64,000 bases of DNA. Origin: a virus (Duplodnaviria > Caudoviricetes). The notes beneath the pieces are model-generated. The model saw nothing but the letters and a program-made list of their open reading frames with translations, did no database searches and had not been told where the DNA came from. Position 1 is the first letter of the stretch. Every line of letters begins with the position of its first letter. The stretch is taken from positions 8,857 through 72,856 of IMG/VR virus record IMGVR_UViG_3300017432_000006; one strand, 5' to 3'. A program made the position numbers and the translations under genes. Shown piece after piece: positions 49,095-61,379 of this stretch.

Positions 49095-49138
49095 GACTGC
49101 CTCTCCGTTGGGGGACCCTCCCCCTTCCTTGTGCCTTA

Positions 49139-49166
49139 AGTCTATGGCATACAGGCACAGTGTCAA
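49139..49166 (-). promoter_or_regulatory. Early promoter TTGACA-16-TAGACT with tandem ARG-like boxes at 49189-49222
   Basis: Consensus hexamers; conserved leader to GGAGAGG-ATG. Confidence 0.8.
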
Positions 49167-49231
49167 GCCCAAACAGCAAAATCCCCAATGAATTTTCATG
49201 CATGGGTGTGCATGATCATGCAGTGTCCGTA

Positions 49232-49362
49232 ATGTCCGATTTGTCCCTTTTGCCCTAGAGTGACTGCTGGCACTTTCAGAATGTCCGTTTTGTCCCTGCC
49301 AGGGTCAATGTCCGATTTGTCCCCCGCCCCATGGGCGGTATCCCATATGTCCGTTTTGTCCT
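49232..49362 (+). repeat. Four iterons ATGTCCGWTTTGTCC
   Basis: Copies start at 49232, 49281, 49308 and 49347. Confidence 0.85.
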
Positions 49363-49470
49363 AGGTTGTACTGATATATCCTGACATATCGTGATTTGGC
49401 CCTGTTGTCCCTTTACCACAAAGGCCGGGGATGGTGAGGGTAGTTTAGCCACATACCCTAGGTGGTAGTA

Positions 49471-49611
49471 TCACAGATTCCAGATAGATTCGATTGTCTC
49501 TAGCGTAGCCTCATAAGCCTCAGCCTCTTTGATGTTTCCTTCCTCCCGGCATTCCTCAGCACACTCAGAAATCATCTTGTGAAGCCGGTTAGCCTTTTCG
49601 TCAAAAGCCAT
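49471..49611 (-). CDS. Small acidic early protein (46 aa)
   Basis: Flanked by two pseudoknot elements; RBS AGGA. Confidence 0.6.
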   Translation of the reverse strand: MAFDEKANRLHKMISECAEECREEGNIKEAEAYEATLETIESIWNL

Positions 49612-49681
49612 TGTTTGTCCTGTCTGTGAGAAAGGGCGGGGGATTGGTGGGCAGTTTTACTACTTACCCAGGTAGTCCTAA

Positions 49682-49855
49682 CTAGGAAGCGATACGGACG
49701 ATGCGACGGCGGGTGATCTGGAACTTAGAGATGCAGTTATCACCAGTAAGGGTAATCACCTTCCCCGTCTCCATGGAACGTGCCTCACCGTAACCCAGGA
49801 ATTCGAAGTGCTCGCCATTGGTGTAACGGATGAGGACGGTACCGACGGTCTTCAT
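49682..49855 (-). CDS. Early protein (57 aa)
   Basis: First gene after promoter 49928. Confidence 0.65.
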   Translation of the reverse strand: MKTVGTVLIRYTNGEHFEFLGYGEARSMETGKVITLTGDNCISKFQITRRRIVRIAS

Positions 49856-49898
49856 GATTCCCTCTCCGGTTGGGGTCTTTCCCCTCCCTGTAAGCACC

Positions 49899-49928
49899 AT
49901 GGTAGTAGGGGTTGGGGGAGTCTGTCTA
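49899..49928 (-). promoter_or_regulatory. Early promoter TAGACA-18-TACCAT with a TGTAC direct repeat at 49948-49964
   Basis: Hexamers plus conserved leader. Confidence 0.7.
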
Positions 49929-50049
49929 CTCGAAACGGCAAGATTTTTGTACTGACTTTTGTACCGGGTCACCGCCCGCAGGGTGGTTGCGTGTTCAACC
50001 AAATGTGTTGTGTGAGAATGGTTTTCAGCAATAGTGGAAACGGCGGGTG

Positions 50050-50202
50050 TTAGTCAGGGTTAGTCATATCCCTAATGTAGTAACTAACAGAGGTGTATTC
50101 CCTAGACAAAGAATTGCGGTACTCAATTGCAGCGGCATGTGTATCGAATGGTCCATACACATCAGCAGGGTATCCATAAATGGTAGCGACAATGCAGCAC
50201 AT
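50050..50202 (-). CDS. Early protein (50 aa, YGPF motif)
   Basis: RBS AAAGGA; MCCIVATIYGYPADVYGPFDTHAAA. Confidence 0.55.
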   Translation of the reverse strand: MCCIVATIYGYPADVYGPFDTHAAAIEYRNSLSREYTSVSYYIRDMTNPD

Positions 50203-50404
50203 GCGGTAAATCCTTTCGTTTTGTGGGGTATTTGCGGAATTAATTGCGGAAAATGGCCGAATTTGCGGAAAAAGGGGCGCTATATGTAAAAAACCAATGC
50301 CTAAAAATCGGCTGTCACAGAATTTTTGTTCAACAATTCATTTTTGTCACATGAATGCTAACCTTGTTCATCTACACGTTCGGTGCGCTATATCTTCGAC
50401 CTTT

Positions 50405-51072
50405 TCAGTAAACCGTCCGGTAGTCCGTTATCTCTATCACTGTGGTATGTACTTCAATAGGATCGCTAGGGGTTGCTATCTCTTCCCGCGTCTCCCGCGC
50501 CGCCTGTAATGTTGGGTATTGCTGCCCACCGAACCAAATGCTTTCTTGTCTCACTGTGGGACGTTTGCTGTAAGTGCTTTCTATCTCATTCATCAAACCC
50601 CGCCCGTCCGGCTGTAGTCGAATAGCGCCTTCTCTAGATACTTACACATATCACGATACTCAATTAAGTTCTTTCGTGCTTCGTAAAAGGTGTGTAGTGC
50701 AAAATACTCTGAATCATTGTTAATAAGGCTTGCCACTTCAACCCCGCGCCTTTTCTACATTGACACCAGTAACAATGAATCCGTAGGCAATGTTCTCCCG
50801 AGTCTCAATCTCTTCAACATTCATTTCAACCCCGCGCCTCATCGTAGTTGTCAATAGCCGTAGCGACCATCATTCGCATATCCCGCACATCATCCCGGCG
50901 CATTCCGTCAAGCATTCCGAGGAACATCTTTGCAGCGTCATACTCAGCGTCATTGTTGATGAATGCCCTAGGCTGATAAACCATCTTAACCCCGCCGATT
51001 CTTGAGAATGTCCCTAATGTCAAGCAATAGCCAACAGATAACCACTAGCAGAAAGAAGATACCAACGTCCAT
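50405..51072 (-). other. Chain of five translationally coupled mini-ORFs (50986-51072, 50826-50984, 50738-50824, 50593-50736, 50405-50593)
   Basis: Each start is preceded by GCGGGGTT; lengths 28, 52, 28, 47 and 62 aa. Confidence 0.65.
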
Positions 51073-51144
51073 CCTAACCCCGCCTTTTCGTTGTTGTGCG
51101 CTATTGGTGTGGGCCTTTTACCGACAATGCCCAGGTCTATTCAC

Positions 51145-51306
51145 TTACTTGTCCCAACGAATGTTCGTCTTAACCCATTCACGCATTCCCTCGTCACCCT
51201 CAGAAAGCATCTTCTCATAAAGGTCAATCATTGCGGCCTGATAGCCATTCATGTGCCACTTTGTCTGAGTAGTACCATTGGGGGCGTAAGCGGGAACAAC
51301 GCGCAT
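51145..51306 (-). CDS. Early protein (53 aa)
   Basis: Between two pseudoknot elements; RBS AAAAGG. Confidence 0.6.
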   Translation of the reverse strand: MRVVPAYAPNGTTQTKWHMNGYQAAMIDLYEKMLSEGDEGMREWVKTNIRWDK

Positions 51307-51384
51307 TGTTTCGGCCTTTTCTGTGAATGGTGCCGGGGTTTTGGTGGGGCCTTTTAGAATGTCATGCCCAGGACATTTGCTGAA

Positions 51385-51549
51385 TCAGTAAACAGTGACG
51401 AACAAATCACGCTGACGGTGAATCCGCTGAGTCTTTCCGTCAGCCGCAACAAAGAGGATCGTAACAAAGTCACTGTAACGGTGCGCGGCGGTCACCGTAC
51501 CCTCATCGATGACGTCCCCGGCCTCAAGGTCCCAAACGATCTTCTTCAT
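51385..51549 (-). CDS. Small beta-barrel-like early protein (54 aa)
   Basis: First gene after promoter 51623; paralog of 54443..54622. Confidence 0.7.
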   Translation of the reverse strand: MKKIVWDLEAGDVIDEGTVTAAHRYSDFVTILFVAADGKTQRIHRQRDLFVTVY

Positions 51550-51595
51550 GATTCCCTCTCCGTCCGGGGGACGTTCCCCCTTCCTTGTAAGACCT

Positions 51596-51623
51596 AGCGT
51601 ACACCATCTAGGGGCGTGGTCAA
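51596..51623 (-). promoter_or_regulatory. Early promoter TTGACC-16-TACGCT with a perfect CRP-type site at 51644-51659
   Basis: TGTGA-CGTGCA-TCACA. Confidence 0.75.
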
Positions 51624-51659
51624 CCCCAAACCGCGCGGGTCAGTGTGACGTGCATCACA

Positions 51660-51806
51660 TCACGGACGGTCAACGAACCTAACCGTAAATTCCTCCGTAT
51701 CATTAGACTTACTGACATTCTCATAAGCATCATCAATGTCGTCAAAGGGCCCGGTAATTCCGAGAATAAAAGCGTTCTTTGCGTCCTGCTTAACGATAAC
51801 GTACAT
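51660..51806 (-). CDS. Early protein (48 aa, GPF motif)
   Basis: RBS GAGGG. Confidence 0.55.
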   Translation of the reverse strand: MYVIVKQDAKNAFILGITGPFDDIDDAYENVSKSNDTEEFTVRFVDRP

Positions 51807-51814
51807 TCTACTAA

Positions 51815-52027
51815 TCACTCACCCTCACGATAGACAATGGTGTCGGAAGTGTCATACTCGGGAACACGAACAGGATTCATCCAAATGCTGCGTCGAACGT
51901 CAGCATTCCTTGACAGCAATTCATCACGCAATCCCCGCCGGGCGGCAATCAAAGGGCCTACACAATCGCGCGGGACTCGAACGTGCCAGATACCAAAACC
52001 GTTAGCCCAGGTGGTAACCATCGTCAT
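51815..52027 (-). CDS. Early protein (70 aa)
   Basis: RBS AGGA after a pseudoknot element. Confidence 0.65.
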   Translation of the reverse strand: MTMVTTWANGFGIWHVRVPRDCVGPLIAARRGLRDELLSRNADVRRSIWMNPVRVPEYDTSDTIVYREGE

Positions 52028-52092
52028 TCCTGCTTTCTTTGTAGGTAATGGTGGGGCCTTTTACAGACATGCCCGGGTCTATTGTTCGGATA

Positions 52093-52398
52093 TCACATAA
52101 AACGCATCATTGCACGGTCAAGACGAGCCATCTTCTCATCGAAAGACAGTTCGACACTGGCAAGAATCATTGCGCGATAACGGGCGCCGATCTTTCGGTT
52201 GGTCTCCCGCGCGTCCCGCGCCGCCCACTCAGCCTGCCGCGCGCTAGCCACCGTGGCGCACGTTCCAGCGTGGTCCCCACGGCTGTAGTAACCAGAAGCG
52301 TACTCAGCGGAGAGGTTAACCGTAGCACCGAAGCACGTTCCGACCATGGTGCCACACTCAGCGCACGCCCGGACACTGTGAACACGATTCGTCGCCAT
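52093..52398 (-). CDS. Early protein with CxxC (101 aa)
   Basis: First gene after promoter 52469; RBS GGAGGGAG. Confidence 0.7.
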   Translation of the reverse strand: MATNRVHSVRACAECGTMVGTCFGATVNLSAEYASGYYSRGDHAGTCATVASARQAEWAARDARETNRKIGARYRAMILASVELSFDEKMARLDRAMMRFM

Positions 52399-52439
52399 GG
52401 TGCTCCCTCCCGGTAGGGTCCCTCCCTGCCGTTGGGTCA

Positions 52440-52469
52440 AGTATAGGCACGGCAGGGAGGGGCGGTCAA
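52440..52469 (-). promoter_or_regulatory. Early promoter TTGACC-18-TATACT with a GTGA-N7-TCAC site at 52492-52506
   Basis: Near-consensus hexamers. Confidence 0.8.
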
Positions 52470-52502
52470 CCCGAACGAACAACTACTTTGGGTGACTGCC
52501 GA

Positions 52503-52862
52503 TCACTCAAAGTCAAACGAGGGACGACGAATGCTGTAACCGGCAATTCGGTAATCGGGAAGCCCGGCAATCTGAGAAAGCACAGAATCAACCTCGAAAA
52601 CATCGAGCCAACCGATAACATCACCAGTGACCGGGGTTCCATAGGTAATGTCACCATCCTCATTCAGAACAGCAATCTCCCAAAGACCATCCCGACCACC
52701 ATAACTACCAGAGTGAGAAATGATAGAAGCGGCAAAACCGTTCTCAAAAAGAATGACAATTCGCTTACTGTTGGGAATGCCGTCAATAGCGCCCGCCTCA
52801 ATCACAACACCATTGTTGTGAAGGGTAAGCATGTTTCCGGTGATGGTGGCGAGAGCAGACAT
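52503..52862 (-). CDS. Conserved phage protein (119 aa)
   Basis: FENG..ASII....SYGG..GLWEIAVL......Y.TP.T.DV.GWL pattern, common in diverse phages. Confidence 0.7.
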   Translation of the reverse strand: MSALATITGNMLTLHNNGVVIEAGAIDGIPNSKRIVILFENGFAASIISHSGSYGGRDGLWEIAVLNEDGDITYGTPVTGDVIGWLDVFEVDSVLSQIAGLPDYRIAGYSIRRPSFDFE

Positions 52863-52927
52863 TGTTTTTCCTTTCCAAGAATGGCCGGGGGATTGGGCCT
52901 TTTTGTATCTTGCCCAGGATATTTAGA

Positions 52928-53065
52928 TCAGTAGCAGTGAATGCACTCGTGATCGGGGTTACCAATCGCGGCAATGCAATCCATCATCCCGAAGAAGTCA
53001 TCAGCGTGCTCATCCTCGGGACCGAACTTTGCCGGGTCATCCTCGAAGTCAAAGTCAAAAGCCAT
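52928..53065 (-). CDS. Very acidic Cys/His-containing early peptide (45 aa)
   Basis: First gene after promoter 53141. Confidence 0.65.
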   Translation of the reverse strand: MAFDFDFEDDPAKFGPEDEHADDFFGMMDCIAAIGNPDHECIHCY

Positions 53066-53111
53066 GATTTCCTCTCCGGTCCGGGGGTCCGTCCCCCTTC
53101 CTTGTGTCTTT

Positions 53112-53141
53112 AGAGTAAGCCATGGGGAGGGGTAGGTGCAA
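53112..53141 (-). promoter_or_regulatory. Early promoter TTGCAC-18-TACTCT with tandem ARG-like boxes at 53165-53198
   Basis: Hexamers plus conserved leader. Confidence 0.7.
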
Positions 53142-53245
53142 GCCGAAACCGAAGATTTTTCCCATGAATTTTCATGCATGGTGGCGCATGATCATGCATG
53201 GGCCGGGGAGGTTAGGCAGTTTATTCACATACCTAGGTGAGAATG

Positions 53246-53668
53246 TCACCCAAAGAAATCCGGCAGGGCAACCGGGTCATTCATGGTGCCATTCTTGAAG
53301 TTGTAAAGCACCCAAGCCGTGCGACCATTCCCGTCAGTGAACGGGTGAATCCAAAGAAACTCCTTAATCCATTCATCGACAGTAAGGTCATTGCCATGCA
53401 CGATAAGGCCAGAAACAAGCCGAACAACATCAGCGGCATTTGCAGCCGTACCACCATTGGCAAAGGTAACCGGCGTCTTTCGGTAAACCCCGCCATTGTC
53501 CGGCTCAACAATACCGGCAAGAATAGCGATGCTGCCCATCGTGATATCGGCGGGAGAAAGCGAAGAAGCGTACTCGTAACCCCGAATCAGTGTCCAAAGG
53601 CGCTCAATTCCAACGTGCTGCCGCTCGCACTCAATAGCAGCCGCAGAAGCAATCGCGTGAATGTTCAT
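53246..53668 (-). CDS. Fic/Doc family protein
   Basis: HPFTDGNGRTA Fic signature; YR...V.F flap motif. Confidence 0.9.
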   Translation of the reverse strand: MNIHAIASAAAIECERQHVGIERLWTLIRGYEYASSLSPADITMGSIAILAGIVEPDNGGVYRKTPVTFANGGTAANAADVVRLVSGLIVHGNDLTVDEWIKEFLWIHPFTDGNGRTAWVLYNFKNGTMNDPVALPDFFG

Positions 53669-53736
53669 CGAATTCTCTTTCTGTCGTTTTCGGGAATGGG
53701 TGTGGGCCTTTTAACATCATGCCCAGGATGTTTGAA

Positions 53737-53880
53737 TCAAGCCATAGAACGGAAGTCAACCATGTGGGTAAGATTTCCATTCTGAATCTTGCACCAGCCA
53801 AAAACAAATTCAATGACAGTACCGGTGCGAGTCATTCCCGAAAGGTCGCGCCCGACGATCTTGTCACCAATGTTCGGCAT
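53737..53880 (-). CDS. Small SH3/KOW-like early protein (47 aa)
   Basis: First gene after promoter 53954. Confidence 0.65.
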   Translation of the reverse strand: MPNIGDKIVGRDLSGMTRTGTVIEFVFGWCKIQNGNLTHMVDFRSMA

Positions 53881-53925
53881 GATTTCCTCTCCGGGGGAAG
53901 GTCCCTCCCTCCCCCTGCAAGCACA

Positions 53926-53954
53926 AGGGTAACGGTCTGGGGGAGGGTTGTCTA
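53926..53954 (-). promoter_or_regulatory. Early promoter TAGACA-17-TACCCT with tandem ARG-like boxes at 53977-54010
   Basis: Hexamers plus conserved leader. Confidence 0.7.
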
Positions 53955-54035
53955 CTCGAACGGCAACTTTTTCCCATGAATTTTCATGCACGACCATGCA
54001 TGATCATGCGCGACGCTGAGTGTCTTTGATCCTCG

Positions 54036-54221
54036 TTACTTCTTCCTGTAAGACGCGCGAATGATGACGATAGCGGCAACAATACCGATAACGAGATTGA
54101 CACCAATAGGCATCATGACAACCGCCGGGGATAGGGTGAACATCGTCAGAATACCGGCAATGATCATACCAGCGAAAACATAGCACCCAACAATAATGAT
54201 ACCGGCGGCTGTATTGCTCAT
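54036..54221 (-). CDS. Two-TM membrane protein (61 aa)
   Basis: Hydrophobic; start at ATG 54221, just after the upstream stop. Confidence 0.6.
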   Translation of the reverse strand: MSNTAAGIIIVGCYVFAGMIIAGILTMFTLSPAVVMMPIGVNLVIGIVAAIVIIRASYRKK

Positions 54222-54225
54222 TGTA

Positions 54226-54378
54226 TTAAACCCAATCGCTAACGGTGCGGGAAACCTTGACGTAGGAATAGTTGCCCATTCCAGCATACTGATTGACGTA
54301 GTAATCAGCCTGTGACTCGTCAAGACAAGGAAGAATGCTGTCGCCATTGATTCGCTTAACGCCCCACTCAGTACGCAT
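54226..54378 (-). CDS. Early protein (50 aa)
   Basis: RBS AGAGGA after a pseudoknot element. Confidence 0.6.
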   Translation of the reverse strand: MRTEWGVKRINGDSILPCLDESQADYYVNQYAGMGNYSYVKVSRTVSDWV

Positions 54379-54442
54379 GATTCCTCTTTCTGTTGTTGTT
54401 CAAGAATGGTGGGCAGTTTCTATTCATGCCCAGGAATAGAAA

Positions 54443-54622
54443 TCAGGAATTTCCCATTTCGAAAACCGTCAGCATCACATCCCGAAGAAAGCACTCACGA
54501 CCGTTAACACCATCATTGGTGAAACGAACATCAACAAACTCACTGTATCGGTAAACAGCGGTAACGGTACCGTATCCCATGACAACATCACCGATAGTCA
54601 GAGACTGTGCATCCTTGAACAT
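54443..54622 (-). CDS. Small beta-barrel-like early protein (59 aa)
   Basis: L.IGDV....GTVTAV.RYS.FV; paralog of 51385..51549. Confidence 0.7.
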   Translation of the reverse strand: MFKDAQSLTIGDVVMGYGTVTAVYRYSEFVDVRFTNDGVNGRECFLRDVMLTVFEMGNS

Positions 54623-54663
54623 GATTTCCTTTCCTGGCCGGGTCCCTCCCTGCCGATGTGATA

Positions 54664-54693
54664 AACCTATGCCCTGCCCGCTAGGTCTGTCAA
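54664..54693 (-). promoter_or_regulatory. Early promoter TTGACA-18-TAGGTT with a TGTAC direct repeat at 54713-54728
   Basis: Hexamers plus conserved leader. Confidence 0.75.
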
Positions 54694-54749
54694 CCCGAAA
54701 CCCAAGAAACTTTGTACCAATTTTGTACCAACCAAAAATCCATCCTACG

Positions 54750-54784
54750 GGCCGGTAGGCTGAGTGTGTACCTACCTACCGGCC
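54750..54784 (-). terminator. Hairpin/terminator after gene 54799..55197
   Basis: GGCCGGTAGG/CCTACCGGCC 10-bp stem. Confidence 0.55.
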
Positions 54785-54798
54785 TGTTCCTGGGACCC

Positions 54799-55197
54799 TC
54801 AGAGAGCGGCTACAGCGTGCCTAGCGCGTGCCTCATCAATGGGCAGGGGATAACCCGAGGAAGTACGGGAAAGGAAATCATCGGAACCCTTATCATAAGG
54901 CGTCAGCATATCGGCATCAAGAGCAAACAGATATGCCAGGAAGAATCCCCAAGAATCATAGGTGGCAGCATAGTCAAGGGAATAGCGGTCAACATTCTTT
55001 GCAGTACCGGCATTAACGCGCCTCTTTGAATGGGTCCCGTCACCGATCAACTTAACGGTAATGCCATTCTTGCGCTTAGTGCTACCGTGCCAATCGAAAT
55101 CATCAAGAATGACCTTACCGTGCCCGGCATTTCGCGCAGCATACTCAGTAGCAGAAACAATATCCTTGTAACCGATAACGTCAGAGTGAATACGCAT
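54799..55197 (-). CDS. Conserved hypothetical protein (132 aa)
   Basis: HGSTKR...AATYDSWG.FLA.LF..D pattern. Confidence 0.7.
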   Translation of the reverse strand: MRIHSDVIGYKDIVSATEYAARNAGHGKVILDDFDWHGSTKRKNGITVKLIGDGTHSKRRVNAGTAKNVDRYSLDYAATYDSWGFFLAYLFALDADMLTPYDKGSDDFLSRTSSGYPLPIDEARARHAVAAL

Positions 55198-55199
55198 GA

Positions 55200-55490
55200 T
55201 TACCTCTTAATCTTAGTCGCGGGAAGATTGAAGGGAATTGCTTCGATAAACCAATCACGATCAAAGCCGTAACCATCCTGCGCGTCGCAGAAAGCCTTAC
55301 CGTCCGCCCAATTGTCGAAGATAGCAACAACGTTAGGCGTACTATGCCAGGAATCGGCATTGCAATACTTCACCGCCCAAATGGTGTTTGTAAAGTCACC
55401 AATGGAAACAATGCTACTCATATCAATCCTCCCAATGCCCATCCATTGCATTGTCAACAATGGCATACTCTGAATTGTAGTGAATGTCAT
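55200..55490 (-). CDS. Hypothetical protein (96 aa; true start may be internal)
   Basis: ORF in series. Confidence 0.55.
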   Translation of the reverse strand: MTFTTIQSMPLLTMQWMGIGRIDMSSIVSIGDFTNTIWAVKYCNADSWHSTPNVVAIFDNWADGKAFCDAQDGYGFDRDWFIEAIPFNLPATKIKR

Positions 55491-55561
55491 GACTAGGCGC
55501 GGAAATCTCGCACGGGAAACGCTCGGGGGAATCGCGGAACCACATCACCGAATTACACACA

Positions 55562-55735
55562 TCAAACCTCTCGAATACGCATACGGTTGGCGTAGTTTGG
55601 CTGATTCTCTCGATACTCAGCAAAAGCAATCTCAGCGTCTTTGCGAGTATCCTTTGCCGGGCCGATAGGAAGCCATACCTGTGTCATTCTCGCGCCGCTA
55701 AACGGGTTGATCTTCTTAACCTCAACAACAAACAT
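55562..55735 (-). CDS. Early protein (57 aa)
   Basis: RBS GAGAGG. Confidence 0.55.
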   Translation of the reverse strand: MFVVEVKKINPFSGARMTQVWLPIGPAKDTRKDAEIAFAEYRENQPNYANRMRIREV

Positions 55736-55909
55736 GGGAATTCCTCTCAGAAAGCCGGGGGACGCTCTAGCGAAGAAACATACATCATATCGAAGGAAGG
55801 CGCCTTTGCCTTTGCCTTGAACATTCGCCGGAAGAAAGCCACGGGAATTCTCCTAATGTATTGCGAGGAATGGGAGGGTTAGTTTTACATCATAACCCAG
55901 GATGAGATA

Positions 55910-56053
55910 TCAGAAACGCTCGCGGCTGATAACCCGGTCGTCCTTGTCAAGAACGATGCGAACATTGTAGAGAAAGACGCCGTAAGGGTCAAGGATACGG
56001 TAAATGGGAAAACCGTTGTCATCGAAACCCATAAAACGCTCGCGGTTGTCCAT
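55910..56053 (-). CDS. Early protein (47 aa)
   Basis: First gene after promoter 56125; RBS GAAAGG. Confidence 0.6.
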   Translation of the reverse strand: MDNRERFMGFDDNGFPIYRILDPYGVFLYNVRIVLDKDDRVISRERF

Positions 56054-56096
56054 GGGTTCCTTTCTCGGGAAGGTCCGTCCCTCCCTGACAAGACCT

Positions 56097-56125
56097 AGTT
56101 AATCACCATCCGGCCCGCCCGTCAA
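56097..56125 (-). promoter_or_regulatory. Early promoter TTGACG-17-TTAACT with a CRP-like site at 56146-56161
   Basis: TGTGG-N6-TCACA. Confidence 0.65.
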
Positions 56126-56295
56126 GCCGAATCGGCGGGGTTGTGTGTGGTGTGCGTCACACTACGCAGAGTAACCGCCGGATACCGATTCTAGAAACCA
56201 CCCAACGGTGCTATTTCTAGAATCGGCCCGGAATTAGCGAGGATTGAACCAACAAATCCAAAGAACAACCAACAGGACAACTACAGGAATGCCAT

Positions 56296-56469
56296 TCATC
56301 GTCCGCGCCGAATGTCATTGAAGAAACGAGCCGTACCAGCGAAACTACCACCAGTCATGCAATACGCCGCCCAAATCTCGGAATTGGGAATGAAGTTGTC
56401 GGGGTTGAAGGGGTTACCAATGTCACTCCCGAAACGAACAGCATCGGCAATCATCGAAGTAGTGATCAT
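56296..56469 (-). CDS. Early protein (57 aa)
   Basis: First gene after promoter 56609 and the three-way-junction leader. Confidence 0.6.
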   Translation of the reverse strand: MITTSMIADAVRFGSDIGNPFNPDNFIPNSEIWAAYCMTGGSFAGTARFFNDIRRGR

Positions 56470-56502
56470 GATTTCTCTTTCTCGGGATGGAATGGTGCGG
56501 GA

Positions 56503-56575
56503 TTGTCAGGAAGCCGTTAACAGACCACAGACATTCGTTAAGGGATTTTTTGGTATCTCCCTCACTTCCTGACAA
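56503..56575 (-). ncRNA. Three-way-junction 5' leader RNA, copy A
   Basis: 11-bp P1 UUGUCAGGAAG/CUUCCUGACAA; homologous to 59817-59908 and 60754-60824. Confidence 0.65.
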
Positions 56576-56580
56576 GAAGA

Positions 56581-56609
56581 ACACTACGGGACCGCGCACC
56601 CAGAGTCAA
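56581..56609 (-). promoter_or_regulatory. Early promoter TTGACT-17-TAGTGT with a TGTAC direct repeat at 56618-56634
   Basis: Near-consensus hexamers. Confidence 0.8.
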
Positions 56610-56846
56610 GCCAGTTCTGTACCAACTTTTGTACCAAATTTTTTCAGCGTCTCCCGCGCCCAACCCCTCCCCCGGTACCCACCTACCCTGCCCTTCCTGG
56701 CAGGCTCTCAGTGTGCCCTACAGGCTCCCTAGCCTAGAAGTCTGATGGTGTGTAGTGGTCCGGGCCGGGGCAAGGAATGTCCGTCAAATCAAAGTCATAG
56801 TCTCTACAATGACAACAGATACCATCGGGTGTAAAGGAATGTCCCA

Positions 56847-57008
56847 TCAGAATTCCACCGCGATATCGAAATTCTCGCCCTCACTGGAAAGCCCGGCGTC
56901 AAATGCCGCACGAACAGCAGCGGCAATCATATTCGGAATGTCAACGTCAGCCATTTCAGCGCAATTGATGGAAAGATCACCGGCGTCATTGCGAACGGTA
57001 ATAAGCAT
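56847..57008 (-). CDS. Early protein (53 aa)
   Basis: TGATG coupling on both sides. Confidence 0.55.
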   Translation of the reverse strand: MLITVRNDAGDLSINCAEMADVDIPNMIAAAVRAAFDAGLSSEGENFDIAVEF

Positions 57009-57262
57009 CAGAAAAGGTTCCCATCCTGAGGAATAGCGGTGAAGAAATCAAAGGCAACAGCCTCGAACAAAGCATCACGCGCGGTTAGCGTAGTGTCCTC
57101 GTAGAACATATCCTGCGCGCGCGGGCAAATTACATCATACATGTAGCCATATGTCGCGGTATCCCAATAGGGACCGTCCGTACGCTCGAAAGCATAAAAG
57201 TAAACCGCCTCTCCCTCAAACCTCTCGGAATTGATTTGCTCGTCACGAATAGGATTGGTCAT
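57008..57262 (-). CDS. Acidic hypothetical protein (84 aa)
   Basis: RBS AGGAAG. Confidence 0.6.
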   Translation of the reverse strand: MTNPIRDEQINSERFEGEAVYFYAFERTDGPYWDTATYGYMYDVICPRAQDMFYEDTTLTARDALFEAVAFDFFTAIPQDGNLF

Positions 57263-57268
57263 TGCTAC

Positions 57269-57418
57269 TCACTTCCTGCGCTTGTAGTAATCGGGATCGC
57301 CGGTAATATAGGTGCCAGTGTGAATGATGATCTGTCCGTTAGCGTCAGTCACCTTAATGTGGTCGGGAAGCATCTTGTCTAGAACACGAATCATCTTGAC
57401 AGTGAATAGTGGTCGCAT
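57269..57418 (-). CDS. Early protein (49 aa)
   Basis: Open frame filling the gap between neighbours. Confidence 0.5.
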   Translation of the reverse strand: MRPLFTVKMIRVLDKMLPDHIKVTDANGQIIIHTGTYITGDPDYYKRRK

Positions 57419-57494
57419 AAGCATTCCCAATGGGTCGGGCGGGGGACACTAACTATCGCATCCCCCGCCATTGGTTGTCAACCCAGGAATGTAT

Positions 57495-57782
57495 TCAGTA
57501 AATCTTTCCCTGATGCTTAGAAGTAGTAACCGAATACTTTACAGGCGGCTTAACCTCAGTACCATCAGAAAGCACCCAAGCAATCGGCGTGCCGTAAGAG
57601 AGAACAGTGTAAACAATGTCATTTCGCTGCGCCCGGTACTGAGTAGCGTACTCACTAGGCATACGCCCGGAATCCCAATAGGCACCAGCCATAGCAGAAA
57701 GCGCACCGTGCGTGTCGAAAGGAATTCGCTTACGCCAGGAATCGGTAACATCAAAGGAGCGGGAGGAAATCTTAGCAGCCAT
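57495..57782 (-). CDS. Conserved phage protein (95 aa)
   Basis: Y.V.SYGTPIAW......KYS.TTSKHQ pattern; RBS AAAGGA. Confidence 0.7.
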   Translation of the reverse strand: MAAKISSRSFDVTDSWRKRIPFDTHGALSAMAGAYWDSGRMPSEYATQYRAQRNDIVYTVLSYGTPIAWVLSDGTEVKPPVKYSVTTSKHQGKIY

Positions 57783-57850
57783 TGTCGTTATCCTTTGTGA
57801 GTGATTGGTGCGGGATGATGTGTCAAGCGTATGTGTTGCGGCACTACTTG

Positions 57851-58144
57851 TCAAGCCGAGACGTTATCGGAAATCCACTCAGAACGAACATCGGAATCGT
57901 CGGAATTGTAAATGTCAAAGGGCATTTCTACCTCAGTGAAATTACCGTCAGTGTAATCGCTAAACCCCACCCGATAAGCAATAGGGTCCATTTCCTCAAG
58001 CACCCGCGCGGGATCAAAAGAACAGCCCGCGACATTGACCATCGGATAACACTCATTCAGCATATCCCGGTAAAGGTCATCCATTTCATCCTGAGTGTAA
58101 ACCGTATCATCGGTGACATAAACGGTGATGGTGCCGGAAGCCAT
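57851..58144 (-). CDS. Acidic conserved phage protein (97 aa)
   Basis: ML.ECYP.V.VAG..F..A.VL.E.DP.AY pattern. Confidence 0.7.
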   Translation of the reverse strand: MASGTITVYVTDDTVYTQDEMDDLYRDMLNECYPMVNVAGCSFDPARVLEEMDPIAYRVGFSDYTDGNFTEVEMPFDIYNSDDSDVRSEWISDNVSA

Positions 58145-58205
58145 TGCGATATCCTTTGTTCGGTTCGGGATGATGGTAAGAGTCTAGCCTATAGAACCGC
58201 GCGGG

Positions 58206-58487
58206 TCAAATCGTGGGGGAAATCCAGAAATGGTACCCACCAGCAGTCTCGGAAAACTCATTTGCATTCCCGATATTGTGCAGGGCAGTGTGAATGTCAA
58301 GCCAAATCTCGTCAGAAGTGATATCCATTCCATCATTCCAGCGAGGGTCACTGTCATTCTGAGAATCACCATCCCAGAAGTGATCAACAATACCAACGAG
58401 ATGTGCCACGGCATCCTCGAAAGAATCGAAAGTCTCCGGGTCATTCTCAGGAAGATAACCGGGCATGTTGTAACCGGCAGTGAACAT
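58206..58487 (-). CDS. Acidic hypothetical protein (93 aa)
   Basis: RBS AAGGAG before ATG 58487; AG.NMPGYLPE. Confidence 0.65.
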   Translation of the reverse strand: MFTAGYNMPGYLPENDPETFDSFEDAVAHLVGIVDHFWDGDSQNDSDPRWNDGMDITSDEIWLDIHTALHNIGNANEFSETAGGYHFWISPTI

Positions 58488-58780
58488 ATCAATTCTCCTT
58501 GAATGGGGACGGACGGTTAGCCAATTGACGGAACCGATAGGTGCGCGGGTGAATGATTCGGTTAAACAATCTCCTAAGCATTGACTTCCAATCGTCGGGG
58601 GATAATGCATTGTGAATGTGGTCCGTCCGGTTGATTCCGGTTCTTTGGGATTTGATAGTCCCAATGTGTTATCCGCTTATCGCGGGAATACACCAACGGA
58701 TACTAAGCCAGTGACAACCGAAACCGATTGTCGTTATTACTGGCTAGGCAGTTTGAATTCCTACCCAGGAATTGAAGGAA

Positions 58781-59026
58781 TCAGGCTTCCCTCTGCGCCC
58801 GGCGCCATGCCATAAAAGCATCACTCTCCCCATTAGCGATAATCTCGTCAATAAGAGCGTTAATCCGCTCCTTATCCTTTCGCATAGCCTTATCGCGGGA
58901 AACCTCCTCCCACACAGACATTCCGCAAAGACGGAAAGTGAGACAAAGAGCGTGAGAATCGTAAGACTGCTCCAACTTAGCCATACGCTCGAAACGGGCA
59001 ACACTCTCAGCCTTGAAGTCAGTCAT
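58781..59026 (-). CDS. Early protein (81 aa)
   Basis: First gene after promoter 59098. Confidence 0.65.
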   Translation of the reverse strand: MTDFKAESVARFERMAKLEQSYDSHALCLTFRLCGMSVWEEVSRDKAMRKDKERINALIDEIIANGESDAFMAWRRAQREA

Positions 59027-59069
59027 GATTCCCTCTCTCGGGCCGGTATCTCCTGCCCTTGTGACTACA

Positions 59070-59098
59070 ACTATACGCACGGGACGGGGGAGCGTCAA
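59070..59098 (-). promoter_or_regulatory. Early promoter TTGACG-17-TATAGT with a GTGA-N7-GCAC site at 59131-59145
   Basis: Near-consensus hexamers. Confidence 0.8.
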
Positions 59099-59381
59099 GC
59101 CGAAACCCAAGTTTTTTCTGACTACTTTGCGTGACCATGTTGCACGCTCAACTACTTGTCTCGTCACTGAGAGTAACCGTTGAAAGATATCCAGCCATAT
59201 ATGGGTGTGGGTATTCACCACATATGGCTAGGTAACCCCCAACGGGGGAGCATACATTACCCAGGAAGTATGCTAGTTCCATTCCCGCGAATTTGCCGTC
59301 CGATAGATAGGCTCTCAGGAAACGATTCGATGGGATTTGGTATTGCGTCCGCGTGTTAGGTATGCGCGGCCCACCATTGAA

Positions 59382-59726
59382 TCACTCAGCCGCGACCAGC
59401 GCAGGGTTAGCCTGAGCGTACTCGGTAACCGTACCGGTCGCAACCGCCAGGAGAGCAGCGTCCGCGATCTTGCCACGCGCGCCCACCTTAGCGCCAGCGT
59501 CCCGAAGAGCCTGCCGCGCGTCGTCAAGGTTGACCTTGACCGGACGACGCTGACCCTTGACCTTGACGTCAACGGTGGGGATGTGCTCGCCAGCGACGTA
59601 CCGGCGGTCAGCAGGCTTGCCCTTGTTAAAGGCAGCGATGACCTCAGCGGAGAACTTGCCGCGGGTGCCGACGGCCATACCAGCGGCGGCGGCGAAGGAA
59701 CGAACAGCAGCGGGGGAAGCAGACAT
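59382..59726 (-). CDS. lsr2: Lsr2-like protein with two tandem DNA-binding domains
   Basis: VRSFA...G.AVGTRGKF and ARQAL...G.KVGARGKI AT-hook-like RGK motifs. Confidence 0.75.
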   Translation of the reverse strand: MSASPAAVRSFAAAAGMAVGTRGKFSAEVIAAFNKGKPADRRYVAGEHIPTVDVKVKGQRRPVKVNLDDARQALRDAGAKVGARGKIADAALLAVATGTVTEYAQANPALVAAE

Positions 59727-59816
59727 AATCGGTGATCCATTCTGTGTGTGTGGTCGGAAGACTTTTGCAACCGATCCGGTGGTGATGGGTGAAACTCTAC
59801 AACCTGTGGAGCCTGT

Positions 59817-59908
59817 CTGTCAACCCGTAACCCCGGCCCGTTATCGGCCCGTTCATGATCGCTAGCAGGTTTTGGACTATCCTGCCGACCGGGGTTCCTT
59901 GCTGACAA
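59817..59908 (-). ncRNA. Three-way-junction 5' leader RNA, copy B (lsr2 leader)
   Basis: P1 AACCCCGG/CCGGGGUU, P2 GCAGG/CCUGC; same loop and junction motifs as copies A and C. Confidence 0.6.
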
Positions 59909-59913
59909 GAAGA

Positions 59914-59942
59914 ACATTACAGGTGCCGCTAGGTCCGGTCAA
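59914..59942 (-). promoter_or_regulatory. Early promoter TTGACC-17-TAATGT with GTAAC-N6-GTAAC at 59963-59978
   Basis: Near-consensus hexamers. Confidence 0.8.
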
Positions 59943-60034
59943 CCCCAAACACCAAGATTTTGGTAACGGTTGTGTAACGGTCTTGTGTCGTACAGGTGTT
60001 CGATGATTCAAAGTTAAACTACCTGTAAATACAG

Positions 60035-60062
60035 AAATCCCCCGGCAAAAGGCCGGGGGAAT
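60035..60062 (-). terminator. Intrinsic terminator
   Basis: TCCCCCGGC/GCCGGGGGA stem followed by UUU. Confidence 0.7.
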
Positions 60063-60068
60063 CCGTAA

Positions 60069-60245
60069 TCAAACCTCGTTATCCCTTTCAATCCAGTAGT
60101 GAGTATGGGCAACGGCTTCCCGATTAGCCATTCCTTCAAGGGAATAACCGAAAAGCGGACCGCATATCTTACAGGTAAGGAACCACCCATCTAATGCGCC
60201 GGGGCCACTAGCCTTTGTCGGCTTAACATCGACAGTGTGAAGCAA
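60069..60245 (-). CDS. Zn-finger-like early protein (58 aa)
   Basis: RBS AGGAG, TTG start; CKICG...H.H. Confidence 0.55.
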   Translation of the reverse strand: MLHTVDVKPTKASGPGALDGWFLTCKICGPLFGYSLEGMANREAVAHTHYWIERDNEV

Positions 60246-60354
60246 TGTATTCTCCTAAATGATTGATGAATGGGTGGCGGGATTTCATACCCGCTATCTC
60301 TGTGATTCGATCACAGTAAGTTTGTGAAGCATTCGACTCTACCCATTGTGGTAT

Positions 60355-60486
60355 TTAGTTGTCGCGCTTCCATTCACGCTTTTCTTTTGCCTTTTGCGCG
60401 CGCTTTGCCTTTTCGGTCCACCGCTTTGTTACCGGTTTGTCGTGACAAGCGCCGATCTTTGCGCCTAGGCTGTTCATCATTCGCAT
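60355..60486 (-). CDS. Small Lys/Arg-rich protein (43 aa)
   Basis: ..KRWTEKAKRAQKAKEKREWKRDN; paralog-like to 60554..60718. Confidence 0.6.
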   Translation of the reverse strand: MRMMNSLGAKIGACHDKPVTKRWTEKAKRAQKAKEKREWKRDN

Positions 60487-60553
60487 AACGGTATTGTATC
60501 CTAACCGTAGAGGGAATGGGAGGGTAGTTTATTGTCATACCCTAGGACAAAGA

Positions 60554-60718
60554 TTAGTGAATCTCCTTCTTCCACGCACGGTTCTCCCGCGTGCGAGCAA
60601 TTCGCTTGTGCTTCTTCCTGTCCTTCATGGAAAAGCAGCAGTCACAAGCGCGCTTCTTCCCGAAGTGAGCGTGCTCGGAAACCAAAACAGCGTGACGCAT
60701 CATGCGAGCCATAGCCAT
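60554..60718 (-). CDS. Small Lys/Arg-rich protein with CDCC (54 aa)
   Basis: RBS GAGGA; ..KDRKKHKRIARTRENRAWKKEIH. Confidence 0.65.
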   Translation of the reverse strand: MAMARMMRHAVLVSEHAHFGKKRACDCCFSMKDRKKHKRIARTRENRAWKKEIH

Positions 60719-60753
60719 TCCTCACTGTCGGGGGATGATGCCTAACCGTAGCG

Positions 60754-60824
60754 TGTCGGGAGCCGTTATCGGACCGTAGGTGATCGTTAAGGGGTTTTTT
60801 GGTCTGTCCCCTCACTCCCTGACA
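60754..60824 (-). ncRNA. Three-way-junction 5' leader RNA, copy C
   Basis: Close homolog of 56503-56575 with compensatory changes. Confidence 0.65.
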
Positions 60825-60830
60825 AGGAAA

Positions 60831-60859
60831 AACTTACAGGGTCCCGCGCCCGTGGTCAA
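60831..60859 (-). promoter_or_regulatory. Early promoter TTGACC-17-TAAGTT with GTAAC-N6-GTAAC (60869-60884) and two DnaA-like boxes (60889-60908)
   Basis: Near-consensus hexamers; TTCTCCACA and TTTTCCACA. Confidence 0.8.
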
Positions 60860-60918
60860 GCCCAAACGGTAACGAACAGGTAACGAAGTTCTCCACAGGT
60901 TTTCCACAGGTAGTGAAC

Positions 60919-60951
60919 AAAAGAAATCCCCTAGCAGTATCACTAGGGGAT
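60919..60951 (-). terminator. Intrinsic terminator
   Basis: ATCCCCTAG/CTAGGGGAT stem followed by UUCUUUU. Confidence 0.75.
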
Positions 60952-60962
60952 AACGGTAATTC

Positions 60963-61247
60963 TTAGTGCCAATGGCACTTATCAGGACAATTGCCATTCC
61001 AGATATCGACACCAGCCTCAATTCGGAATTCGGTATCCTGAATCACGCAGGGAAAGTTCGTGCCGTTGTTGGGGGAAAGGAAAAGAATTGCCTCCGTAAT
61101 CTCCTTAGCCATAGTGGGATAAGACTCAGCAAGCATTTGAAGGAATTCACAGCACTCATCAAAAGAAAGGCCAATCTTGTGATCGACGTAGTGCTTCCCG
61201 AAAGAGCCAGGAATACGGTAGTAAATACCGGCAGCAAACATCGTCAT
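60963..61247 (-). CDS. Early protein (94 aa)
   Basis: First gene after promoter 61318. Confidence 0.7.
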   Translation of the reverse strand: MTMFAAGIYYRIPGSFGKHYVDHKIGLSFDECCEFLQMLAESYPTMAKEITEAILFLSPNNGTNFPCVIQDTEFRIEAGVDIWNGNCPDKCHWH

Positions 61248-61289
61248 GATTTCCTCTCCCGCCCCGGTCCGTCCGGCGCCGATGAGTCA

Positions 61290-61318
61290 AAGGTAAGGGA
61301 TGGGGGAGCCAGTGTCAA
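61290..61318 (-). promoter_or_regulatory. Early promoter TTGACA-17-TACCTT with a perfect CRP-type site at 61329-61344
   Basis: TGTGA-CGTACA-TCACA. Confidence 0.8.
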
Positions 61319-61379
61319 GCCGAACCGATGTGACGTACATCACACCTGTAGGGGTTGCACCATGGGTTGCCATGCTGTA

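Follow-up and report, generated by a model that had tools for sequence, protein, structure and literature searches.

The window analysed here is a 64,000-nt stretch of the 72.8-kb record of an uncultured actinophage, whose ribonucleotide reductase is closest to that of Rhodococcus phage Trina. Its minus strand carries three early transcripts, each of which, judging by predicted start sites, opens with a related structured RNA element that makes up about its first 70 nt (copies c1, c2, and c3). Copy c3 (60753–60825, minus strand; 73 nt; covariance model score, 90.7 bits) precedes an operon (60069–60718, minus strand) encoding two paralogous, very basic peptides of 54 and 43 amino acids (60718–60554 and 60486–60355) and a 58-aa ORF (60245–60069). 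Intrinsic terminators on the same strand lie immediately upstream of the c3 promoter (60926–60951) and at the end of the c3 operon, immediately upstream of promoter A of c2 (60038–60060). Copy c2 (core, 59899–59828, minus strand; 73.5 bits) lies upstream of a minus-strand gene (59382–59726) for a 114-aa Lsr2-like protein with an Lsr2 DNA-binding domain (Pfam PF23359, E = 6e-11; PHROG category, Lsr2-like). Copy c1 (56503–56575, minus strand; 73 nt; 87.8 bits; fold z-score −2.8) is followed by a 57-aa ORF with no family match (56296–56469, minus strand). A search of IMG/VR with the Lsr2-like protein gave no matches, while the basic peptide retrieved no candidate from a set of 5.8 billion proteins and a single insignificant match, to QueH, from a PDB sequence search. 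In contig L134, from a related phage, orthologous basic peptides again sit behind an orthologous element.

A regular-expression scan of the minus strand for sigma70-type promoters (TTGAC-N17-TAnnnT) found −35 boxes at 56609, 59942, and 60859, where a preliminary description of this DNA had placed three promoters. The c1 promoter (56581–56609) consists of TTGACT (56609–56604), a 17-nt spacer, and TAGTGT (56586–56581), predicting a transcript start at about G56573; promoter A of c2 (59914–59942) reads TTGACC and TAATGT, and the c3 promoter (60831–60859) TTGACC and TAAGTT. Relative to the predicted starts, c1 to c3 begin 0–4 nt downstream. More generally, assuming initiation 7–8 nt past the −10 box, the closing helix P1 or an outer extension of it begins 0–4 nt after the expected start in all seven sequences of the element that we compiled (see below). 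Such an extra outer stem, pairing the extreme 5′ end, occurs in c2 and in the homologues from contigs L005 and L006; in the minimum free energy fold of c2 it reads UGUCA/UGACA, extends the element to 59818–59909 (minus strand), and joins the 5′ end by base pairing to the −35 sequence of promoter B. This last promoter (59794–59823, minus strand; TTGACA-N18-TAGAGT) lies between element c2 and lsr2 and is kept in L005, L006, and L134/L141. Since a complete promoter B separates element and gene in all four phages, many of the transcripts that reach lsr2 are expected to start past the element, and the earlier proposal that it controls lsr2 is doubtful. Not every early promoter is so equipped: a fourth one (56081–56125, minus strand; −35 box at 56125) has the start box of the others (CTTGTCAGG, CTTGTCAGGGAG) but only a short hairpin leader and no element. 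The remaining early leaders of the phage contain just a small hairpin some 8–9 nt in.

Scanning the 72.8-kb record with a covariance model of the three copies returned c1, c2, and c3 as the only elements, all on the minus strand, with E-values of 1e-16 to 1e-21 that follow by construction; the best non-copy match had E > 3. The model built from the three copies detected homologues at L134:273–345 (E = 1e-12; a contig new to the model), L006:236–309 (E = 7e-9), and L005:354–431 (E = 7e-5), the latter two again sequences that the model had not seen, and a model rebuilt from six sequences detected L134:1129–1195 (E = 1e-4), outside its training set. These are syntenic metagenome contigs of related phages, and the homologues preserve the fold by compensatory changes. 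The element behaves as a cassette, preceding unrelated genes and even another promoter. Among the sequencing runs listed as containing this DNA, none is an RNA run. Contigs from DNA sequencing run X3 were 90–96% similar across all three copies, and a look-up of 90%-identity clusters yielded nothing beyond this phage itself (L147, L148) and a chimeric 794-nt contig (L149). Model scans detected no copy in the whole record of phage Trina or in relatives fetched through proteins, including more distant ones; megablast and blastn searches with 56300–61200 gave no match among GenBank phages. In IMG/VR, two motif patterns had no matches, and two looser patterns checked with the model had chance matches only, all without P2. 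The element is absent from each of three more distant Lsr2-like loci (L144–L146); in L144 the tandem-promoter slot before the Lsr2-like gene is kept but occupied by a different structured RNA. Within Trina, the relatives, and the IMG/VR pattern matches checked, the distribution is extremely narrow, amounting to a few phage contigs.

A three-way junction and a loop-loop pseudoknot make up the fold. P1 (5–11 bp) is connected by J1/2 (1–3 nt) to P2 (4–5 bp), which bears an A-rich loop of 11–13 nt; J2/3 ends in (A)ACG (UAACG in c1 and c3) and leads into P3, a 3–4-bp helix in which AUC of box A pairs with GAU of box B around a 12-nt loop; and J3/1 (AACG) runs into the 3′ strand of P1. The P3 loop pairs with the P2 loop over 4–5 bp. 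Read together, the junction strands are G(A), UAACG, and AACG, the latter two nearly invariant; about 11 junction nucleotides are near-invariant, and conservation across the seven sequences is concentrated at unpaired positions. The alignment of c1 to c3 shows an invariant CCAAAA loop, TA(A/G)CGA, and G(A/T)TAACGG. In c1 (this and the following on the minus strand), P1 comprises 56575–56565 and 56513–56503, P2 56562–56558 and 56545–56541, and the pseudoknot 56555–56551 (loop strand) and 56527–56523, with junction plus box A at 56540–56528 and box B at 56522–56514. In c2, the inner P1 is AACCCCGGU/GCCGGGGUU and P2 is GCAGG/CCUGC; the pseudoknot pairs 59877–59873 with 59851–59847, and box B spans 59846–59838. 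In c3, the corresponding segments are 60825–60815 and 60762–60753 (P1), 60812–60808 and 60794–60790 (P2), 60804–60800 and 60776–60772 (pseudoknot), and 60771–60763 (box B). The P2-loop pairings first proposed for the three copies (ACCA/UGGU, GUCC/GGGC, and GACC/GGUC) are present as described. The register originally suggested for P3, UAACGA...UAA (UUAAC/GUUAA), works in c1 alone and scores 0.70 vs 0.86 for AUC/GAU, and we replaced it accordingly.

Covariation was assessed on seven sequences (c1, c2, c3, two from L134, and one each from L006 and L005), representing about four closely related phages. In the model-made alignment of these sequences, P1 and P2 have been rewritten almost fully yet remain paired (87.4% of cells vs 58.5 ± 4 in shuffles), 13 of 15 pairs have changed in both partners, and none of 500 shuffles reaches the covariation score of 0.79 (vs 0.26). 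In a curated alignment, itself fitted to the model, swapping 3′ strands between sequences reached the observed pairing in 0 of 2000 trials for P1 and for P2 and in 4 of 2000 for the pseudoknot; sliding the partner by 1–3 columns collapsed every helix, and an unbiased scan of all 4-bp helices gave its top ranks to P1, P2, the pseudoknot, and AUC/GAU. Compensatory variants of the pseudoknot include GACC/GGUC, GUCC/GGGC, and GCAC/GUGC, with only 3 bp in L005, and P3 shows a single compensatory change, in c1. Moreover, seven G·U pairs in P1 suit the transcribed strand only (58 of 63 vs 52 of 63 on the opposite strand). The fold itself is thus very probably genuine and constitutes a previously undescribed cis-encoded structured RNA; the three-way junction with pseudoknot noticed initially at the 5′ end of early transcripts is real and conserved.

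It is also unclassified. Rfam searches gave no match at gathering score over the whole window and, at E ≤ 10, nothing but noise in the element regions and homologous contigs, with no riboswitch, ribozyme, or xrRNA family; this agrees with the first assessment, which set the element apart from purine riboswitches, xrRNAs, and the hammerhead, twister, and pistol ribozymes. A SAM/SAH riboswitch match (RF01727; E = 2.6) was rejected: it covers 14 nt of the variable P1 strand, is confined to c1, and scores 17 bits against a cut-off of 40. We likewise rejected a NusB/E boxA-like reading of CCCUUAACGA, the left half of which is the variable P2 strand, and the hammerhead, twister, pistol, and hatchet ribozymes, whose cores (e.g., CUGAUGA...GAAA) differ from the junctions G(A), UAACG, and AACG.

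What might such a leader do? The leaders of c1, c3, and L134e1 run directly into the gene. In folding predictions for these three the element is an independent domain, and the accessibility of the Shine-Dalgarno sequence is unchanged with or without P1; neither a terminator after P1 nor a platform sequestering the Shine-Dalgarno sequence is evident. Bacterial mRNAs are known to be stabilised by stems that begin no more than about 4 nt from the 5′ end. Our leading interpretation, to which we assign a probability of roughly 35%, is that the element sequesters the 5′ end and stabilises early mRNAs. It would fold by itself once transcribed, locking the 5′-terminal nucleotides into P1 and leaving no single-stranded entry for 5′-end-dependent RNases (RNase J, RNase E, RppH), so that selected early transcripts would live longer; the conserved junction and loop-loop contact would create a compact core that is hard to unwind, and closure of P1 could hinge on a bound factor. 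Against stabilisation counts that a plain hairpin would suffice for 5′-end protection, and the near-invariant junction and conserved tertiary contact suggest that a specific partner is recognised, be it a ligand, a protein, or RNA polymerase.

Recognition of the polymerase is the basis of an alternative that we consider unlikely: the nascent element could bind RNA polymerase, alone or with the basic peptides encoded 3′ of c3, and render it resistant to pausing and termination in the terminator-punctuated early module. HK022 put binds the polymerase unaided, and lambda N acts together with nut. Size, sequence-related copies, and placement match HK022 putL/putR, action at a distance would account for the absent local platform and for a cassette placed before any gene or promoter, and strong intrinsic terminators flank the units (60951–60926, 60060–60038). 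Behind the c3-type element, the window and L134 alike encode two paralogous, very basic peptides; however, the peptides, whose C-termini may resemble the lambda N arginine-rich motif, have no detectable similarity to any solved N/Nun peptide or any family, and the fold is unlike both put, with its two stems and triplex, and boxB hairpins. Furthermore, each unit has its own promoter, and with terminators that look like insulators, read-through is not obviously needed.

The junction may instead bind a metabolite or second messenger, making the element a phage-specific aptamer (an orphan riboswitch) or else a small self-cleaving ribozyme, with P1 stability, mRNA decay, or Rho termination as the output. 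This, too, we regard as improbable. A three-way junction with L2-L3 pairing, variable helices, and near-invariant junctions is typical of aptamers, the purine class among them, and the concentration of conservation in unpaired positions points the same way, but neither a terminator nor an alternative fold sequestering the Shine-Dalgarno sequence is evident, a promoter parts element from gene in the lsr2 copies, and the extremely narrow distribution (none in Trina, distant relatives, or the IMG/VR pattern matches checked) and lack of Rfam riboswitch or ribozyme matches at E ≤ 10, bar the chance c1 SAM/SAH match, speak against it.

Less probable still, the element could be made for its own sake: three strong early promoters would then supply a stable 5′ fragment with a role in trans, such as decoying a host RNA-binding or defence protein. 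At the lsr2 locus, promoter A seemingly serves mainly to make the element RNA, since promoter B follows at once, and the distant relative L144 keeps the tandem-promoter slot with another structured RNA; yet behind the element there is neither a terminator nor any recognisable site of processing, and c1 and c3 continue straight into coding leaders. Finally, we consider it very improbable that the fold is incidental and that TAACG-type sites past the start, together with inverted CGTTAC boxes upstream of −35, are DNA operators for a host or phage regulator: CGTTAC (in transcript orientation; the inverse of TAACG) is indeed present in two copies, spaced by 11 bp, ahead of the promoters of c2 and c3, with CCGTTATC at the same place in L006 and TCGTTACC at the lsr2-side promoter of L134, and the window contains more TAACGG than expected (45 vs 24), but operators conserve sequence, whereas P1 and P2 differ from copy to copy while staying complementary, the pseudoknot covaries, the G·U pairs of P1 suit the transcribed strand only, and c1, L005, and L134e1 lack upstream boxes.

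To our knowledge, very little is known about transcription control in the first minutes of infection by large lytic actinophages. Here, a compact fold supported by covariation marks some of the early promoters, among them the ones serving an Lsr2-like nucleoid protein and two tiny basic peptides, and offers a small, readily mutated handle on RNA-based early-gene control in actinobacteria, be it by 5′-end protection, polymerase modification, or ligand sensing. Tentatively, we put forward the possibility that it represents a hitherto unknown class of functional RNAs placed close to actinophage promoters: either put-like, reprogramming the host RNA polymerase with or without the adjacent peptides rich in arginine and lysine, or an aptamer or ribozyme confined to phages. 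In both cases the conserved three-way-junction core would bind one particular partner and decide what becomes of the earliest transcripts. If put-like, it would extend RNA-only antitermination past the lambdoid coliphages; if a stabiliser, it could be used as it stands to engineer expression in Rhodococcus or Mycobacterium.

Several known systems share features with the element. xrRNAs ring an upstream single strand through their pseudoknot; the element shares with them a compact junction-plus-pseudoknot fold, but flaviviral and plant-virus xrRNAs form this ring around the 5′ strand, whereas the pseudoknot here joins L2 to L3. The purine riboswitch (RF00167) is built on the same P1-P2-P3 three-way junction, at about 70 nt, with tertiary pairing of L2 and L3 and conservation along the junction strands; unlike it, the element gives no cmscan match at E ≤ 10, has a short P3 and no expression platform, and was found in a few phage contigs only. 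As with lambda nut and N, a leader RNA is repeated in early operons, and behind one copy the leading gene codes for a small, very basic protein; the element differs in having no boxA/boxB architecture, its P2 loop measuring 11–13 nt in place of a GNRA-like pentaloop, and homology of the peptides to N is not detectable. Like HK022 putL and putR, the element is about 70 nt long, is present in at least two related copies per phage right after early promoters, and does without a local expression platform; in putL, structure begins at nucleotide 3 of the transcript, and put forms two stem-loops with a short (stem-I) triplex in a V shape (PMC9378689), found in lambdoid coliphages, in contrast to a three-way junction with pseudoknot in an actinophage lineage. 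Finally, 5′ stem-loops of the ompA/aprE type and the early-RNA stabiliser of phage SP82 sequester the extreme 5′ end, as the element would given its predicted start sites, but stabilisers of this classical sort amount to a plain hairpin or a ribosome-binding site; for the more elaborate architecture seen here, a precedent is the viral xrRNA, a compact three-way-junction/pseudoknot RNA that is able to stop bacterial RNase J1 mechanically (PMC5760640).

Three promoters on the minus strand (–35 boxes at 56609, 59942, and 60859) are each followed by a related leader of ~70 nt (c1, 56503–56575; c2, 59828–59899, with an outer stem to 59818–59909; c3, 60753–60825), bearing out the preliminary description, and a covariance model built from these copies recovered them alone within the 72.8-kb record. 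All three carry the start box CTTGTCAG 7–8 nt 3′ of the –10 box. Since a fourth promoter (56125) has the same box without the element—its leader being merely a short hairpin—the box is a promoter or initiation feature, not part of the RNA motif. The remaining early leaders measure 35–45 nt, with a small GC hairpin adjoining the SD, and the element looks like a cassette placed between start site and ordinary leader.

Relatives are rare. A set of 5.8 billion proteins holds just two that are closely related to the Lsr2-like protein encoded downstream of c2 (lsr2, 59382–59726). Both of their metagenome contigs (L005 and L006) show the order found in the window, namely promoter A, element, promoter B (59794–59823 in the window), and lsr2. 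The covariance model, to which both contigs were unseen, detected the element in each (L006:236–309, E = 7e-9; L005:354–431, E = 7e-5). With a pattern derived from promoter B, we fetched two more contigs, L134 and L141, from JGI metagenomes. L134 is syntenic with 60.9–59.8 kb of the window and comprises a terminator, a promoter, a c3-type element (273–345, E = 1e-12), a pair of basic peptides, additional genes, a terminator, promoter A, a c2-type element (1129–1195; recovered at E = 1e-4 by a model rebuilt from six sequences), and promoter B. This brings the total to seven distinct element sequences from about four phages. Covariance-model scanning did not find the element in Rhodococcus phage Trina, nor was it found in phages at a greater distance that have Lsr2-like or DUF8033 genes or in IMG/VR contigs matching partial patterns. 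A contig of a more distant phage (L144:300–535) keeps the tandem promoters before its Lsr2-like gene and holds a different structured RNA, of ~110 nt and two long hairpins, in the slot between them.

P1 and P2 vary in sequence between copies (P1 5′ strands, one per copy: GUCAGGAAG, GUCAGGGAG, AUCGGCAG, AACCCCGGU, GGGACCGGG, UCGAAAGC, GGGAG; P2 5′ strands: AGGGA, AGGGG, AGGGC, GCAGG, CCGGA, GCCGG, CCGG), yet within every copy the two strands of each helix, compared segment by segment, remain complementary. In a model-made alignment, paired cells amounted to 87.4% (58.5% in shuffles), both sides had changed in 13 of 15 pairs, the covariation score was 0.79 versus 0.26 (0/500 shuffles), and pairing collapsed in slid-partner controls. 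An exhaustive 4-bp helix scan of a curated alignment—built with the three-way-junction/pseudoknot model in mind, from few and related sequences—ranked P1 and P2 first, followed by a helix between the P2 loop and the bases immediately preceding box B, and then by the AUC of box A paired with the GAU of box B. The loop–loop helix reads GACC/GGUC (c3, c3-type L134 copy), ACCA/UGGU (c1), GUCC/GGGC (c2, L006), GCAC/GUGC (c2-type L134 copy), and only GCA/UGC in L005; two positions changed on both sides while the geometry stayed fixed (2–3 nt 3′ of P2, 9–10 nt 5′ of the P1 3′ strand), and the observed pairing was reached in 4/2000 strand-swap trials. P3 is near-invariant, with c1 alone differing in both boxes; this compensatory change to AAU/GUU, a single event (87/2000), is why c1 reads ACGAAUG and GUUAACGG. 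An extra P1 pair joins the first junction nucleotide to the last of box B (U·G in five copies, C–G in c2) and, being G·U in the c2-type L134 copy, explains the odd GGAUAACGU there. Seven P1 G·U pairs are compatible with the transcribed strand only. Near-invariant unpaired nucleotides comprise J2/3, which ends in ACG in 7/7 copies (UAACG in c1, c3, and the c3-type L134 copy), J3/1 (AACG), J1/2 (G or GA), and, in the P2 loop, the A-rich 3′ half. Covariation and the helix scan support the three-way junction and loop–loop pseudoknot originally proposed; the P3 register drawn at that time gives way to AUC/GAU. Judged by sequence comparison, P1 and P2 are well, the pseudoknot reasonably, and P3 weakly supported.

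In Rfam, no family matched at the gathering score or E ≤ 10. The junctions lack a hammerhead core, the pseudoknot topology differs from that of xrRNAs, and a 14-nt SAM/SAH riboswitch match within the variable P1 strand of c1 is due to chance. The element is a real, unclassified, and narrowly distributed structured leader RNA.

Its host contig, 72.8 kb of which the window covers 64 kb, is ~55% complete (CheckV), with ~50% GC and no tRNAs found; its DNA had no GenBank phage match, and the ribonucleotide reductases nearest to its own come from Rhodococcus phages Trina and NiceHouse (71–73% amino-acid identity). An independent ENA assembly of the same phage (53.7 kb) shares the contig end at ~64000 (L147:1), which suggests a physical genome end or terminal-repeat border lying upstream, by ~3 kb, of the first promoter that carries the element. 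Because two independent assemblies stop there, the small-gene module on the minus strand (48.6–61.3 kb) probably lies within a few kb of such an end or border. The sigma70-type promoters that serve the module number at least 13 and follow the pattern (T)TTSGGSTTGAC-N17-TAnnnT. On the 5′ side of their –35 boxes (49100–61350, minus strand), early promoters bear differing repeats phased at ~11 bp: TTGGTAC (×2) at promoters 54693 and 56609, GTAACG (×2) at 59942 and 60859, TGTGA-N6-TCACA palindromes at 51623 and 61318, and a DnaA-box-like pair (TGTGGAAAA/TGTGGAGAA, ~60880–60905) kept upstream of the lsr2-side promoter in L134 (1040–1075). Between 48800 and 60550 (minus strand), several repeat families recur along this module: D4, D5, and D14 are CCUGGGUA…AAACUNCCC hairpins 3′ of stop codons, and D1 is a ribosome-binding/start consensus, GGAGAGGNAAUCAUGA.

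An invariant 27-nt block, GGTGGGCCGCGCATACCTAACACGCGG, with a CCGCG/CGCGG stem and an 11-nt loop, lies 3′ of the lsr2-like stop codon—immediately adjoining it in L005 as in the window, and ~80 nt further on in L006—despite the Lsr2 proteins of these three phages being merely 57–68% identical. Exact copies also occur in two IMG/VR phages that are unrelated and whose GC contents are very different, each copy sitting 10–15 nt 5′ of an ATG within a short spacer; the positions of the block are window 59349–59375 (minus strand), L005:~856–882, L006:~793–819, L155:978–1004, and L156:192–218 (minus strand). A search of 185,579 prokaryote genomes did not find the block, and Rfam gave no match for it. 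The 350-nt non-coding stretch after lsr2 (59027–59381, minus strand) shares more conserved structured pieces with L005 and L006, among them GCUCCCCCGUUGGGGGUUACCUAGC and CCUAGCCAUAUGUGG…CCAUAUAUGGCUGG, the latter a long hairpin, and may be a non-coding RNA or 3′ UTR element. The c3 operon encodes two paralogous, extremely basic peptides of 54 and 43 aa (60355–60718, minus strand; L134:383–680), both with an N-terminal (A)RMM motif and a C-terminal EN/EK, two residues, and WK(K/R)(E/D); the first also has HxH…CxCC. Both are kept in L134 and the C-terminus also in L006; neither Pfam nor PDB gave a match, and the one weak PHROG match has no function assigned there.

No terminator was found 3′ of P1; in the three leaders running into a gene, computed folding predicts an insulated domain and an SD equally open with or without P1; and at the lsr2 loci the element and the gene have a complete promoter between them. 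Together, this argues that the element would act independently of downstream sequence. The most consistent additional feature, given the predicted starts, is that the first nucleotides of the transcript are always paired: P1 begins 0–1 nt from the start in c1, c3, and both L134 copies, and in c2, L005, and L006 the 5′ end pairs with sequence adjoining promoter B by way of an additional outer stem (UGUCA/UGACA or AAGC/GCUU). We therefore favor, with a probability of roughly one in three, a 5′-end-sequestering leader that would resist decay by holding its first nucleotides in P1 or the outer stem. As a hairpin alone would suffice for such protection, the conserved core probably recognizes something.

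The basic peptides encoded directly 3′ of the c3-type copy and the strong terminators around the units would also fit a put/nut-like RNA with RNA polymerase as its target, a reading we hold to be rather unlikely; an orphan aptamer or ribozyme is a similarly tentative proposal, and a trans-acting RNA product seems more doubtful still. That the copies are purely DNA operators is contradicted by the covariation and highly improbable; inverted CGTTAC boxes lie upstream of 3/7 element promoters, and there may be some dual use, with DNA boxes beside the RNA fold.

Being small and modular, the element merits bench testing. Structured promoter-proximal leader RNAs are already known as a kind, of which this is a further one, and in size, copy number, and position the put RNAs would be its closest functional analogues (PMC9378689).
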